From: an uncultured Ignavibacteriaceae bacterium
Lineage (GTDB): Bacteria > Bacteroidota > Ignavibacteria > UBA10030
Length of the DNA: 64,000 bases
Assembly: GCA_964362905.1 (NCBI GenBank)
Contig: CAYIHQ010000001.1
Location: 65,163-129,162, forward strand
Reading direction: 5' to 3'
This document shows positions 55,130 through 58,584 of this stretch, one piece after another (the first letter of the stretch is position 1; each line of letters starts with the position of its first letter). A program made the translations under genes and the position numbers. The notes below the pieces were generated by a model, which had not been told where the DNA came from, ran no database searches, and saw only the letters and a list, made by a program, of their open reading frames with translations.

Positions 55130-55567
55130 ATGATCGCGGACATCGTGCGACGGATCCTACTTGCTCGCCACTCGGGGGACGCCCGAGCGGAGAGCGTGGC
55201 CACCACCTGGCTACTCCTGGAACACACCTATTGGGTGAGGGGGCTCAGAGGAGCATGGCACCTGGCTACTCACGCCCACCCCCTCGCCACTGAGCACTAC
55301 CGAGTGACCGTGCTCCGGGGCACCGTGGCAGAGCCAGCTATCTGGTATCCCCTACGACTTCGGGAGCGCAGCATCTTCCGTGACTCTGCGAGCACCGCCG
55401 CCTACGGAACGGTGGCAAAACGAGTCAACTTGCAGCGGGCACAAGAAGCATTCGAGAACATACGAATGGCATTCCAGCTCCAAGACCGGGACATTCTGCG
55501 GTATCACCCATCATCCCATCTTGAGGGTATGCTGTTTCAGTCGTTGGAAGCGGAACTGACAGCATAG
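55130..55567 (+). CDS. Hypothetical protein (145 aa), first plus-strand gene
   Basis: Met-37 (MIADIVRRIL) of track ORF 55022..55567. The ATG lies 7 nt after TGGTAGGCT. Confidence 0.5.
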   Translation: MIADIVRRILLARHSGDARAESVATTWLLLEHTYWVRGLRGAWHLATHAHPLATEHYRVTVLRGTVAEPAIWYPLRLRERSIFRDSASTAAYGTVAKRVNLQRAQEAFENIRMAFQLQDRDILRYHPSSHLEGMLFQSLEAELTA

Positions 55568-55569
55568 TT

Positions 55570-55663
55570 GTTTCGTTACTTAGTCTTGTGGGGTTCTATG
55601 AATCCAAACGCGAAGAAAGTTCGCGGACTCCGCAGAAACCCCAGAGAACTAAGAGACGAAAAC
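55570..55663 (+). other. Long imperfect inverted repeat (arms ~28 and ~30 nt, 36-nt spacer with its own cgcgaa/ttcgcg hairpin); candidate structured RNA
   Basis: The left arm gtttcgttacttagtcttgtggggttct is compared with the reverse complement of the right arm, gttttcgtctcttagttctctggggtttct. It starts 3 nt after the stop of 55130..55567. Confidence 0.5.
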
Positions 55664-55678
55664 AAATGGCAGATGGAG

Positions 55679-55699
55679 GAGAGAGAGAGAGAGAGAGAG
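55679..55699. repeat. (GA)10 microsatellite in the intergenic region
   Basis: Read directly: ggaggagagagagagagagagagagt. Confidence 0.9.
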
Positions 55700-55811
55700 T
55701 CCTTTTCGTCTTAGAAAGTAGGTGGATCCGCTACTTGAAATCGTCGTGATGTACATTCGGGCGCTACAATCATACTCCTGCTAATGCTCCAAGAGCGGGG
55801 GAAGCAAACCA

Positions 55812-56282
55812 ATGCGCTTTTTCATGCTGCGTAAGGCCGCTAGGCGGAGTCGCATTCTTCAGCACCGCCAAGCAGGTCAGTATGCAGTGTTTTCCGCTGA
55901 GAAACGATACTGGCCAAAGAAGGAAAACTGGAGGCGTAAGAAGAAGCTAGTAAAAGAGCTTCGCCGTATCGGATTTGGATTCAAACGAGTAGTTGGTAGG
56001 GGGCAGGAAGATGAAGGCGGCAAAAAAGTAGTCAATCTCGAACGCTCAGTCTTCGTCCCCCACATGCGAAGGACTACAGCCCATAGGCTGGCCAAGCATT
56101 ATCGTCAGGACTACATGGTGCATGGCAACAAGGGAGTTGCCCATCTTATCCATGTGCCTTCGGGGCGAACGGAACTCACTTGGAAGACCCTGAAGATGAC
56201 CCCTGCAAAGTTCGACTCCCTCGTTCGTGGGTGGAGCAAGAAGCTGCGGCAAAAAGGTCATCACGCGTACCACCAAGAATGA
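55812..56282 (+). CDS. Arg/Lys-rich protein (156 aa)
   Basis: ORF with GGGGGAAG upstream. Contains MRFFMLRKAARRSR..WRRKKKLVKELRR. Confidence 0.55.
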   Translation: MRFFMLRKAARRSRILQHRQAGQYAVFSAEKRYWPKKENWRRKKKLVKELRRIGFGFKRVVGRGQEDEGGKKVVNLERSVFVPHMRRTTAHRLAKHYRQDYMVHGNKGVAHLIHVPSGRTELTWKTLKMTPAKFDSLVRGWSKKLRQKGHHAYHQE

Positions 56283-56842
56283 CCAACTCTTTGTGCCTAC
56301 TGCCGCTGCTTCTGGCAGCATGCTCGTGCTCGTGGGGGCGCGTGGAGACACAAGTACAGGACGACGGGCTAGGCCTCATCGAGATCGAGGGCGGGGGCCA
56401 GCCGGTCGCCGAGCTGCCAGTCCACACCTATGGCTTCATCGACGCCTTCTCCGACGGAGCCCACTTCGGGCGGGGCAACATGCGCGCGGACCTGTGGCAT
56501 GGCCTCGGGCCAGTCGTGGAGGCGCAGATCGCCGGCCGAGACGAGACCGCGCGCGGCGGGCTGGCCTACTGGCCAGAGCTACCGATCGCCGTGGCTGTCG
56601 GCACGCACGCGACCATCGACAACGACGGCGAGCCGCAGGTGCGAGTGATGTGGGAAAGTCTCGATCTCTTCACCACCTTCTCCTGCGGAGGCTTCCTAGA
56701 CCAGAACTTCCCGGGCTGGATCGGCGAGGCACAAGTGAGGTACCACGCATGGCGACAAGCGCGACTGCTCGCGGAGATCAACTTGGTAACACCGAGCACA
56801 GACGACTGGTTCTTCGGAGTGGGTGTCCAATGGGCGTGGTGA
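56279..56842 (+). CDS. Lipoprotein, possibly an outer-membrane beta-barrel (187 aa)
   Basis: Met-34 of the track ORF forms an ATGA overlap with the upstream stop. MTNSLCLLPLLLAACS has a canonical lipobox (LAAC). The aromatic C-terminus is GVGVQWAW. Confidence 0.6.
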   Translation: MTNSLCLLPLLLAACSCSWGRVETQVQDDGLGLIEIEGGGQPVAELPVHTYGFIDAFSDGAHFGRGNMRADLWHGLGPVVEAQIAGRDETARGGLAYWPELPIAVAVGTHATIDNDGEPQVRVMWESLDLFTTFSCGGFLDQNFPGWIGEAQVRYHAWRQARLLAEINLVTPSTDDWFFGVGVQWAW

Positions 56843-57441
56843 AGCTCTGCCCCGTCGCCGATGCAACGGCGACGTACACGACGCTTATAGCGGTGGCATG
56901 CGCCTACTACCTCACAGCCACGATCGGCTTGACATTCGCCGTCCCACCTGGCTACGCCACCCTACTCTGGCCTCCGGCCGGGATCGCGCTGGGTGCCGCC
57001 TATGTATGGGGCTGGAAAGCCGCGTTGGCCGCGGGGTTCGGCAGCTACATGGCCAACCTCTGGGTGCCAAGCGCCACAGATCGTGCGATGGTGGTCTTGG
57101 CTGGAGCCTTGCCGGCAGTAGGTGCCGTTGTGCAATCTTGGGTTGGGGCGGTCCTGCTGCATCGCTATTGCGATCGCGATCTGCGCCGTTGGTCCGCATC
57201 CAATGTTGTACGCTACGCGCTGGTGACCATTGCGAGCTGCACAATCAATGGGGTCTGGGGACCAGCTAGCCTTTCGTTCGCTGGATTCATGGATCAGAGC
57301 ACAATAGCACACAACATCCAAACATGGTGGCTCGGCGACTGCCTCGGTGCGCTCGTCTTTGCCCCGCTGCTGATCTTTTTGGTGGGGGAGACACCTGTGC
57401 ATGGCAGAGAACAACGGCAAGAAGCTCGTCCTGAGTCGTGA
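56830..57441 (+). CDS. MASE1-like integral membrane sensor domain protein (203 aa), with no output domain
   Basis: Met-202 of track ORF 56227..57441. ATLLWPPAGIALGAAYVWGWKAALAAGFG plus several further hydrophobic helices resemble MASE1. Confidence 0.55.
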   Translation: MGVVKLCPVADATATYTTLIAVACAYYLTATIGLTFAVPPGYATLLWPPAGIALGAAYVWGWKAALAAGFGSYMANLWVPSATDRAMVVLAGALPAVGAVVQSWVGAVLLHRYCDRDLRRWSASNVVRYALVTIASCTINGVWGPASLSFAGFMDQSTIAHNIQTWWLGDCLGALVFAPLLIFLVGETPVHGREQRQEARPES

Positions 57442-57673
57442 CACGCTCCTGCCAATCGGAGCTGTCATCGCCATCGTTGGCACGCTGCTCGTACTGTCGT
57501 GGCAGGCACGCGGTGCGCTGGCCGAGATCCAAAAGGACATCAGTGAGCGGCCGACACGCGAGGAGGTCCAGAAGATGCTGGGCGCTGACGCTTCGTGGGA
57601 GGACAACATGCGGACGTGGATTCGGGTCTTCCGCGCGCAGGAGCCTACGCTAAAGATCCCAGACACACGGTAG
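57401..57673 (+). CDS. Single-pass membrane protein (90 aa)
   Basis: TM segment LLPIGAVIAIVGTLLVLSW. Confidence 0.5.
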   Translation: MAENNGKKLVLSRDTLLPIGAVIAIVGTLLVLSWQARGALAEIQKDISERPTREEVQKMLGADASWEDNMRTWIRVFRAQEPTLKIPDTR

Positions 57674-57690
57674 AACAATGAGGTAGGACA

Positions 57691-58584
57691 ATGATAGTAA
57701 AATCCGTAGCGCCTTCTAGTGACATCGGAGTAATCGCCGGAACCACAGCGCAACACCTCGTCATCTCCGTAAGTGGCGTCGCCGACATCGGAGTGACACT
57801 GAGGATCACTCGTCGATCCGACGCACCGCGTGGCCTGGTCACCCTTGGAATGGGAGGCACGGGAGCAGACTTCTGGACCGATGAATCTCTAGAGCCAGGA
57901 GGGATCGAGCTGGCGGAGAGCCTTCTGGCCAGCGGCTTCGTGGTGGTGGACCGCAAGTGGGATCCGCCAGGCTGGTTCTCCTACGGTGCATCACCACGGA
58001 AGTTCAGCGCACGCAGCGCAGTCATGTTCCGGTGGGTCAAGAAAGCGCTGGGACAGAACCTGTGGATGGGAATGATCGGGAACTCCGGTGGTGCTGCCGA
58101 AATAGGCTACCTTCTCACCTCATGGGAAGCAGGAGGCGTACTCGACCTGGCAGTACTCTGTGCTGGACCCCCATTGTCAGACCTACGAGTGGCATGCAAG
58201 GAGCCACCGGCAGACTGGTGGGTAGCAAAGGTCGCACAGCTCGTGCCCCCGGGCATGCTGAAGTGCTCCCCCGTAGATTTGACCCACCCGCCAAATGGGG
58301 TGCTCTGCCCAGTGCTTCCCCCCGCAGCCGACGACAGCAGCCTACTCAATGGCAGCGTGATGTGGCAGAATGCAGCCTATAGCTACAGTCGCACGCACGC
58401 CTATTTCATTATCGGTGAGCTGGACTGCACTGTAGCCACACCACAAGCACTACTCTACCACGAGGCCATCACATCGCCCAAGACCATGGTAGTAGCAGCG
58501 CAGACACCCCACCTGATTTCCACTACAGAAAGTGGACGGTTAGAGATTATGAAGGCAGTCAACACCTACTGCCCACTCGGCTAG
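57691..58584 (+). CDS. Alpha/beta-hydrolase-like protein (297 aa)
   Basis: Nucleophile elbow GMIGNSGGAAEIGY (G-x-S-x-G). Its position after beta-strand-like segments is consistent with an esterase/lipase fold. Confidence 0.5.
   Translation: MIVKSVAPSSDIGVIAGTTAQHLVISVSGVADIGVTLRITRRSDAPRGLVTLGMGGTGADFWTDESLEPGGIELAESLLASGFVVVDRKWDPPGWFSYGASPRKFSARSAVMFRWVKKALGQNLWMGMIGNSGGAAEIGYLLTSWEAGGVLDLAVLCAGPPLSDLRVACKEPPADWWVAKVAQLVPPGMLKCSPVDLTHPPNGVLCPVLPPAADDSSLLNGSVMWQNAAYSYSRTHAYFIIGELDCTVATPQALLYHEAITSPKTMVVAAQTPHLISTTESGRLEIMKAVNTYCPLG

Follow-up and report, generated by a model that had tools for sequence, protein, structure and literature searches.

A mobile envelope cassette in a T4-like phage

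We describe a block of six plus-strand genes (g1 to g6, 55130..58584) in a 64,000-nucleotide stretch of metagenomic DNA, hereafter the window, which covers positions 65163-129162 of the largest contig (129,506 bp) in a mixed metagenome bin. Three consecutive genes of this block, g3-g4-g5, form what sequence comparison indicates is a phage-specific cassette that is horizontally mobile between unrelated phages. Its products are a predicted outer-membrane (OM) beta-barrel lipoprotein, a six-helix core of the MASE1 sensor domain, apparently the first MASE1 protein on record from a phage, and a small bitopic inner-membrane protein; the gene that follows them encodes a putative serine hydrolase without a signal peptide. 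The most probable effect of the block is a change in the envelope of the cell that the phage infects. The contig also encodes homologues of T4 gp23, gp21 and gp18, a class II ribonucleotide reductase with an intein, and SbcC/SbcD, and is on these grounds taken to be a deep-branching member of the T4-like phages. All contigs that are near-identical or related to it stem from metagenomes of Hainich groundwater, the aquifer that yielded the phage. Coordinates without a contig prefix are those of the window.

A preliminary description of the block had likened it to a moron, and the likeness holds for g3-g4-g5: these three genes travel together between phages that differ much more in their core genes. 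In another T4-like phage (L001) the three genes occur in the same order at 62-65% (g3, a figure that depends on the alignment), 59% (g4) and 56% (g5) identity, while the capsid proteins of the two phages are 36% identical and the capsid, prohead protease and sheath proteins range from 32 to 39%. The cassette of L001 lies directly behind the major capsid gene gp23, whereas here it is ~68 kb away from the capsid gene. A third lineage (L022) again has the same order, with a barrel-type open reading frame (ORF) ending GGGVQFSW, a MASE1 gene and a g5 homologue (60% identity); the C-terminus of the g3 profile gives a weak but in-register alignment with the barrel-type ORF. In the phage L003, whose terminase is of the T7 type, the order is rearranged, and a 55-aa two-helix protein and a 103-aa lipoprotein accompany a g5 homologue (E 1.7e-4) that adjoins a MASE1 gene (40% identical). 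The lipoprotein of L003 is homologous to the barrel-type ORF of L022 (E 8e-8); it was not accepted as a direct homologue of g3, the link running only through the L022 protein. Ratios of nonsynonymous to synonymous substitution rates (dN/dS) against L001 are 0.28 for g3 and 0.32 for g4, and span 0.28-0.48 across the triad, which is therefore under purifying selection.

In L001 a perfect 11-bp-stem GC hairpin (L001:7345-7392) occurs right after the capsid stop codon and 12 nt before the g3 homologue; the cassette there must be read through the attenuator of the capsid gene.

The middle of the arrangement is open to substitution. Behind a distant g3 relative in L016, an unrelated siphovirus, come two unrelated proteins, one with four helices and one bitopic with a coiled coil. 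The same phage carries a relative of g6, so that a g3-type barrel and a g6-type esterase are paired in two unrelated phages, this one and L016. The four-helix protein was considered as a MASE1 relative and rejected (hhalign probability 0.3%). It belongs to an unannotated family with the motif HLWWxAxLLL, represented at L016:3955-4494 and L017:989-1105, whose genes in both contigs come right after the g3-type gene, in the position that MASE1 occupies elsewhere.

The cassette is rare, being absent from PHROGs, from IMG/VR (scanned with g4, MASE1 and g6) and from 50,697 phage records, in which neither DNA nor tblastn searches with the block or with g4 gave a match. The IMG/VR scans with g4 and a MASE1 alignment returned only three full-length MASE1 sensor kinases, probably from host flanks, and neither a phage MASE1 nor its association with an OM barrel and a bitopic partner was found in PHROGs, IMG/VR, the phage records or the searchable literature. 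PADLOC assigned no defence family to any part of the block. The general importance of the cassette is uncertain because it is so rare, being known only from the metagenomes of one aquifer and from two distant relatives.

The MASE1 core and its constant partner

The product of g4 (203 aa, 56830..57441) had been described as resembling MASE1, and profile searches bear this out: it matches Pfam PF05231 with E 1.9e-17 and 63.8 bits against a cut-off of 29.8, the same match is recovered in a six-frame search of the bin genome, and NCBIfam matches it to the N-terminus of the EspC kinase (E 4.7e-18). The protein covers positions 3-168 of the 299 in the MASE1 profile and carries the conserved motifs PPGYATLLWPPAG and WWLGDxLG. 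Hydropathy and charge predict six helices, N-in/C-in, and a charged tail, the chain ending 17 residues after helix 6. It thereby falls short of a complete MASE1 domain, which has ~300 aa and 8-10 helical segments (PMC6510439); full-length relatives continue with two further helices and then a kinase just where g4 ends. The reported lack of an output domain is equally clear, as the stop codon (57439-57441) is followed by the 90-aa g5, and none of the six proteins of the block contains such a domain. The MASE1 profile found nothing among PDB sequences.

That an output-less MASE1 in a phage is unusual, as first suggested, holds for the occurrence in a phage, which is new, and does not hold for the truncated core as such. 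A bacterial stand-alone six-helix MASE1 protein, P0005 (219 aa), has the same truncated architecture and the same endpoint (…GEP/GET) as g4. Such bacterial cores differ from g4 in being unlinked to an OM lipoprotein or a g5-like partner. The MASE1 domains of Escherichia coli DgcE, UhpB and PdeF and of Myxococcus EspC share with g4 the motifs PPGYA..WPPAG and WWxGDxxG and Gly/Pro-rich helices; unlike g4, these domains are full length, whereas g4 comes without a kinase, GGDEF, EAL or PAS domain and belongs to a phage clade.

This clade is well separated. In a tree of four phage and 23 cellular MASE1 proteins, the phage proteins group together (support 100/98) on a long stem, and they are 30-37% identical to their nearest cellular counterparts. 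The tree thus points to an old, monophyletic phage lineage, and the low identity and long stem argue against recent capture from a host. These observations also bear on the suggestion, made in the preliminary description, that the phage protein titrates or mimics a host membrane sensor. As a decoy or dominant-negative partner, g4 would associate with a MASE1 kinase or cyclase of the host and so shut it down. Such a role is attractive insofar as the MASE1 domain of DgcE is a protein-interaction platform and the target of the GTPase RdcA (PMC6510439), and as sensor kinases and diguanylate cyclases act as dimers, which a truncated partner could poison. A decoy would hardly be expected, however, to form an old and divergent phage clade with fixed partners of its own, and the gene is always linked to a bitopic partner and an OM lipoprotein that would be superfluous for so simple a function. 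The co-binned, 93%-complete bacterial genome, which is not shown to be that of the host, contains no MASE1 besides phage g4. We consider the decoy highly improbable.

The product of g5 (90 aa, 57401..57673) is a bitopic inner-membrane protein, recognized by homology and by the highest coding score of the block (0.34). An N-terminal helix (residues 15-34) precedes a helical domain of ~55 residues that is predicted to be periplasmic, and the protein contains no Cys. It weakly matches PHROG 6447, 'membrane protein' (E 3e-3). The phage records gave only insignificant tblastn matches, to Burkholderia phages (E 0.9), and a metagenome scan with the g5 alignment found two contigs only, both from the Hainich aquifer. 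As judged from gene linkage, g5 is the constant partner of g4. Few membrane input domains are as common as the enigmatic MASE1 in bacterial kinases and cyclic di-GMP (c-di-GMP) enzymes; a six-helix core that selection has maintained with two fixed partners offers a minimal portable system for the contacts that MASE1 makes.

A predicted barrel lipoprotein

The acidic product of g3 (187 aa, 56279..56842) was initially called an OM-type lipoprotein from its lipobox and aromatic C-terminus, and both features stand up to comparison. The lipobox LAAC at Cys15 fits the pattern [LVI][ASTVI][GAS]C without Asp at +2, and lipidation is predicted; the Cys that is conserved in the family is Cys17, with Ser at +2. 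The C-terminus (…GVGVQWAW) ends in W, F or Y in 5/5 family members. AlphaFold2 models the protein as a beta-barrel (pLDDT 73) with 11 strands by DSSP, and the best Foldseek matches are the 12-stranded sugar-acid porins KdgM (the closest in the PDB, with TMq 0.70 / TMt 0.76 and rmsd 3.2 Å), NanC (0.66) and VhGalP. The model suggests that g3 is a compact 12-stranded OM beta-barrel lipoprotein with a C-terminal beta-signal, the strand count of 12 being that of the KdgM and NanC fold matches; the structure models discussed here are built on shallow alignments, of 5 sequences for g3 and 9 for g6. The likeness to KdgM and NanC extends to size and strand number and is one of fold only: the porins have no lipobox, g3 has no Pfam match at E up to 1, including to the KdgM family (PF06178), its identity to KdgM is ~10%, and its profile matched no PDB sequence. 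A search of the literature for KdgM together with bacteriophage, and for DUF3293, the family of g2 (below), yielded nothing relevant.

Relatives of g3 are few, namely four proteins (P0029, P0038, P0039 and P0041) in 5.8 billion proteins plus 1.84 billion representatives. A HMMER scan of the 1.84 billion representative proteins contributed three distant relatives, while P0029 is the L001-type copy. All have a signal peptide or lipobox and a C-terminal W, F or Y; the lipobox reads AASC or AAAC, and P0041 has a plain signal peptide instead. Among the viral models of BFVD, g3 best matches small, uncharacterised barrels from uncultured and T4-like phages (E down to 1e-5, TM up to 0.58), including unstudied proteins annotated 'outer membrane protein' from Vibrio phage nt-1, Aeromonas phage phiAS5 and Synechococcus phage S-CBWM1. 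Lom of phage lambda is another phage-encoded OM beta-barrel. Like g3, all of these are small barrels, although no sequence relationship to g3 was detected, and we know of no link between any of them and a MASE1-type inner-membrane protein. From the presence of a BAM-type barrel and of lipoproteins in the phage, we infer a classical Gram-negative host.

A signal-less serine hydrolase

The nucleophile elbow GNSGG pointed out in g6 (297 aa, 57691..58584) belongs to a Ser132-Asp245-His274 triad in an alpha/beta fold. All nine aligned sequences have Ser132 and Asp245, and eight have His274. The AlphaFold2 model (pLDDT 72, pTM 0.76) is that of a generic alpha/beta hydrolase, and Foldseek places it nearest to monoglyceride lipases and acetyl-xylan esterases (probability 1.0, TM 0.5-0.6). 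On this model, g6 is a serine alpha/beta hydrolase of the GGGX carboxylesterase type, with predicted activity. No Pfam, NCBIfam or PHROG family model matched it, only weak matches to the nucleophile elbow were found among PDB sequences, and neither tblastn against the phage records nor a scan of IMG/VR with the g6 alignment gave a match.

Cellular homologues of g6 bear a signal peptide, a lipobox or a type IX secretion (T9SS) tail. Copies without any signal occur in this phage, in the L016 phage and in the prophage-like L018. The L016 homologue, which is 32% identical (E 5e-27) and lacks a signal peptide, ends a tail-fibre operon 2 kb from the g3 relative. Four Cys are common to g6 and the exported cellular homologues, and these conserved pairs suggest work outside the cytoplasm.

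Two of the contigs that carry g6-type genes also encode a secreted protein or lipoprotein of ~660-700 aa (L016:640-2736, minus strand, and L018:10218-12191). Members of this family are 39-42% identical (E 1e-108) and match no Pfam model. The family accompanies the g6-type esterase both in the siphovirus contig and in the prophage-like region of an 8-Mb genome, and it may be a polysaccharide-active enzyme that works with the esterase.

The combination of a porin-like barrel and an esterase could also be read as a nutrient-uptake auxiliary module, in which g3 would admit an acidic or acetylated sugar, g4 and g5 would carry it across the inner membrane, and cytoplasmic g6 would deacetylate it, feeding the cell. 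The best fold matches of g3 are indeed sugar-acid porins, the fold of g6 resembles acetyl-xylan esterases as well as lipases, and relatives of g3 and g6 co-occur in two unrelated phages. Bacterial porin genes adjoin esterase genes in kdgM-paeX of Dickeya and nanC-nanM-nanS of E. coli, and NanS-p esterases are known from prophages. We nevertheless regard uptake as distinctly unlikely: g3 is outside the KdgM family by sequence, at ~10% identity, no transport activity is known for MASE1, the conserved Cys of g6 point to work outside the cytoplasm, and the triads of L001, L003 and L022 are without an esterase.

Possible functions: envelope guarding or lysis

We tentatively favour, with less than even confidence, an accessory module that guards the envelope by superinfection exclusion and/or receptor masking together with the g6 esterase. 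The products of g3, g4 and g5 would be made together and would act in the envelope of the infected cell through protein-protein contacts; because there is no output domain, the cassette cannot signal through a kinase or c-di-GMP, and its action would have to be exerted through contacts or the membrane. The barrel would act at the surface and the g4/g5 pair at the inner membrane, in a layout like that of T4 Imm plus Sp and of T5 Llp. Imm is a polytopic inner-membrane protein and Sp a periplasmic, membrane-anchored one, and Llp and Cor are OM lipoproteins; they are likewise small envelope proteins of virulent phages, accessory and variable between relatives. To our knowledge, the known exclusion proteins are single genes or pairs, with no conserved three-gene unit and no beta-barrel or MASE1 relative. 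In this scheme g6 would be an esterase of the exported type minus its signal peptide, either released at lysis or acting on surface-polymer esters, and would serve as a receptor- or polysaccharide-modifying enzyme.

Several features of the locus are consistent with such a guarding role. The cassette stands on the strand opposite to all other genes and diverges from an anti-defence operon, with which it shares a putative TGGTAnnnT promoter type that was not found at structural genes, and it would be co-transcribed with the SAM-lyase-like g2. It is rare, mobile and differently placed in each phage. Small OM barrel genes occur in other T4-like phages (nt-1, phiAS5), the g6 relatives of L016 and L018 adjoin secreted, apparently polysaccharide-active enzymes, and acetyl-xylan esterases are among the fold matches of g6. 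In addition, a separate and more canonical candidate for a holin/spanin cluster is present on the minus strand at 36116-37120. Its three genes encode a two-helix protein of 76 aa whose tail is charged, a lipoprotein of 119 aa, and a 179-aa protein with a lipobox at its N-terminus and a membrane helix at its C-terminus, an architecture like that of u-spanins. Neither PHROG nor Pfam gave a significant match for this cluster, and no endolysin was found nearby.

Other observations weigh against envelope guarding. PHROG and PADLOC searches detected no sequence similarity to known exclusion proteins, and a physical association of g3, g4 and g5 is inferred from gene linkage only. The cassette of L001 has no room for a promoter of its own, which implies late expression and suits lysis at least equally well. 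In its four parts (polytopic protein, bitopic protein, OM lipoprotein and signal-less hydrolase) the layout resembles the lysis cassettes used against Gram-negative hosts, and in L016 and L017 the middle genes have been replaced by unrelated membrane proteins, as holins and spanins are. Five common endolysin families of Pfam (Phage_lysozyme, SLT, Amidase_2, Peptidase_M15_4 and GH19, a list that is not exhaustive) had no match on the contig, nor did tblastn with classical endolysins find any there.

These points lead to a reading that the preliminary description missed, in which the block is a lysis or OM-breaching cassette. The polytopic g4 would permeabilise the inner membrane, with g5 as a regulator or antiholin-like protein, and free the signal-less g6, which would attack ester bonds of the envelope in the manner of LysB of mycobacteriophages, while g3 with g5 would replace the spanin pair. 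This reading fits about as well as exclusion, and although doubtful when taken by itself it is a serious candidate. Gram-negative lysis cassettes have the same four kinds of parts, the same tight overlaps and the same swaps of unrelated components (PMC6139136), and the block has serial translational overlaps. The unrelated proteins found beside the g3 relative in the polytopic and bitopic positions of L016 and L017 match the extreme diversity of holin and spanin families, of which 143 are known for i-spanins and 125 for o-spanins (PMC6139136). Late expression behind gp23 in L001 would suit lysis, as would the missing endolysin families and the contrast between exported cellular g6 homologues and the three signal-less phage or prophage-like copies, together with the four conserved Cys. 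In L003 the genes adjoin TerL and the 55-aa two-helix, holin-like gene. The holin and spanins of T7 are located beside TerL too. Additional lysis factors directed at other envelope layers have been described, namely LysB (PMC5707550) and LysZ (bioRxiv 10.1101/2025.06.24.661397).

The individual parts, however, are a poor fit for those of a lysis cassette. The g3 product is a predicted structured barrel of ~170 residues and not a short, Pro-rich, unstructured o-spanin, and it is twice as long as the bitopic g5, whereas the i-spanin is the longer partner in 489/528 known pairs (PMC6139136). The Cys-free g5 has an N-terminal membrane helix as i-spanins do, but these also have a long periplasmic coiled coil and usually a periplasmic Cys; with its ~55 periplasmic residues g5 is too short to span the periplasm. 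Spanin genes would be expected to be embedded, overlapping or side by side, but g4 lies between g3 and g5 in the window, L001 and L022, and only in L003 are the two adjacent. The g4 protein ends in a charged tail; with 203 aa and six helices it is larger than known holins, which have about 60-150 aa and 1-4 helices, and it matches no holin family in Pfam or PHROG; more generally, these two databases revealed no homology between any of the six proteins and known lysis proteins. The sensor-domain nature of the polytopic member is itself a departure from known cassettes, as is an esterase in place of a muralytic enzyme. The likeness of g6 to LysB is functional only, as it has no Pfam or PHROG match that would indicate a sequence relationship to LysB or cutinases, and the Gram-negative host inferred above would lack the mycolic-acid outer membrane that goes with LysB. 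A g6 gene is not next to the triad in L001, L003 or L022. Finally, there is the more canonical cluster at 36116-37120, L003 has a separate holin-like gene, and the rarity and variable placement of the cassette suggest, if weakly, that it is dispensable.

A third envelope role, which we consider rather unlikely, is that the triad is a trans-envelope sensing or gating device owned by the phage, built on a MASE1 core without enzymatic output. The MASE1 protein, its bitopic partner and the barrel would respond to what happens at the envelope, for instance the arrival of a superinfecting phage or an altered membrane state, and would then set the timing of lysis or close the envelope, comparable to lysis inhibition by T4 RI/T but with unrelated parts. 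Were this so, the triad would provide the first direct handle on what MASE1 senses and how it signals through partners. Envelope guarding, if correct, would make the cassette a new multi-layer exclusion module, and lysis would make it a new Gram-negative envelope opener in which a barrel and an esterase replace classical spanins; in either case the envelope biology of phages would gain a kind of part not known before.

Organization and control of the block

The six genes run in the same direction, as first described, and all start with ATG; the block is the sole substantial plus-strand block of the 129.5-kb contig, in which the minus strand holds almost every gene. With the exception of an ORF at 34950-35660, which sits within a repeat region, no other plus-strand ORF of >100 aa with a good coding score is present on the contig, and GC skew flips sign, to positive, only in the 56-58 kb bin. 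The overlaps required a correction: it is not the last four genes that overlap but the middle four, by 4 nt (g2/g3, ATGA), 13 nt (g3/g4) and 41 nt (g4/g5), with a gap of 17 nt between g5 and g6 and a spacer of 244 nt between g1 and g2.

One could suppose that a lone inverted block is non-functional, being either antisense noise or a set of host-derived genes in decay, and the coding scores of g1, g2 and g6 are below the phage average. Under a codon model trained on the long genes of the phage, however, each of the six genes scores best in its own frame against the five others. All six are intact in three strain variants, among which the proteins of g3, g5 and g6 are 100% identical, and the triad is under purifying selection across four phage lineages. 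Conservation effectively refutes non-functionality. Atypical base composition was considered as a sign of recent capture and is weak evidence, the GC3 of g3 and g5 deviating by only +1.3 to +1.6 sd.

The divergent region that had been proposed is real. It consists of the 95 bp between the ATG of g1 (55130) and that of a minus-strand operon (55035) of anti-defence type, with macrodomain and XRE genes, and is common to both. A TGGTAnnnT element occurs 6-7 nt before the ATG on each side. Across the 129.5-kb contig, TGGTAnnnT-N5-8-ATG stands ahead of ORFs of >=40 aa at five sites, of which two are this divergent pair and none is at a structural gene. These elements look like extended -10 (sigma-70-like) promoters giving leaderless mRNA. 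On the plus strand the presumed promoter is TGGTAGGCT (55114..55129), and because only 7 nt separate it from the g1 ATG, translation of g1 would be leaderless.

In the strain variants L005 (L005:1-630) and L007 (L007:255-1196), a ~790-bp insertion is found at window position ~55000 (contig 120162). It encodes an ArdC-like protein with an ArdC-N domain and an HExxH protease motif, fused in frame with codons 1-34 of the minus-strand gene whose ATG is at 55035. The plus-strand block thus diverges from an anti-defence hot spot that varies between strains.

The first gene, g1 (145 aa, 55130..55567), is recognized as coding from its own-frame score and encodes a basic protein (pI 9.7) of no recognisable family, without a match in Pfam, NCBIfam or PADLOC and with insignificant PHROG matches (E 0.03-0.2). 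It is present in L005 and L007 at 96.5% identity; it is absent from the remaining cassette-bearing phages, and no relatives were recognisable outside the strain variants. Directly 3' of its stop codon, the 244-nt spacer contains a long imperfect hairpin and, after it, a (GA)10 microsatellite (together 55568..55700). The hairpin is not followed by a U-tract and, with z = -1.4 for the whole spacer, is not significant by folding energy alone.

The very basic product of g2 (156 aa, 55812..56282; pI 11.5, 40 Lys+Arg) is a member of DUF3293 (PF11697, 31.5 bits against a cut-off of 25). It also matches PHROG 12788 (E 1.5e-5) and, below the cut-off, S-AdoMet_lyase (PF23780, 20.5 bits against 28). A remote likeness to phage S-adenosylmethionine (SAM) lyase is offered as a lead only. 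There was no match among PDB sequences and none by tblastn in the phage records, and no homologue of g2 adjoins the cassette in L001, L003, L016 or L022. We propose that g1 and g2 are separate early or host-takeover genes that would share a transcription unit with the cassette only in this phage.

At the far end of the block, a palindromic CTAG (58581-58584) supplies the stop codons of both g6 and a convergent 152-aa minus-strand gene. No terminator lies between the two, and the convergent transcripts should therefore collide or overlap.

Features of the phage contig

A T4-type late promoter (TATAAATA) is absent from the coding strand of the whole contig, and the timing of expression therefore cannot be read from promoters. 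In this T4-like phage the lysis enzyme and the late-promoter type are both unrecognised.

The ends of the contig share a terminal overlap of 55 bp, from which the contig is probably complete and circular. The circle-closing sequence occurs at contig positions 1-55 and 129452-129506 and a third time at 128960-129014, 492 bp before the end; the last two of these positions place it at or beyond the end of the window. The third copy may reflect a short repeat where the assembly was joined, or a repeat connected with packaging.

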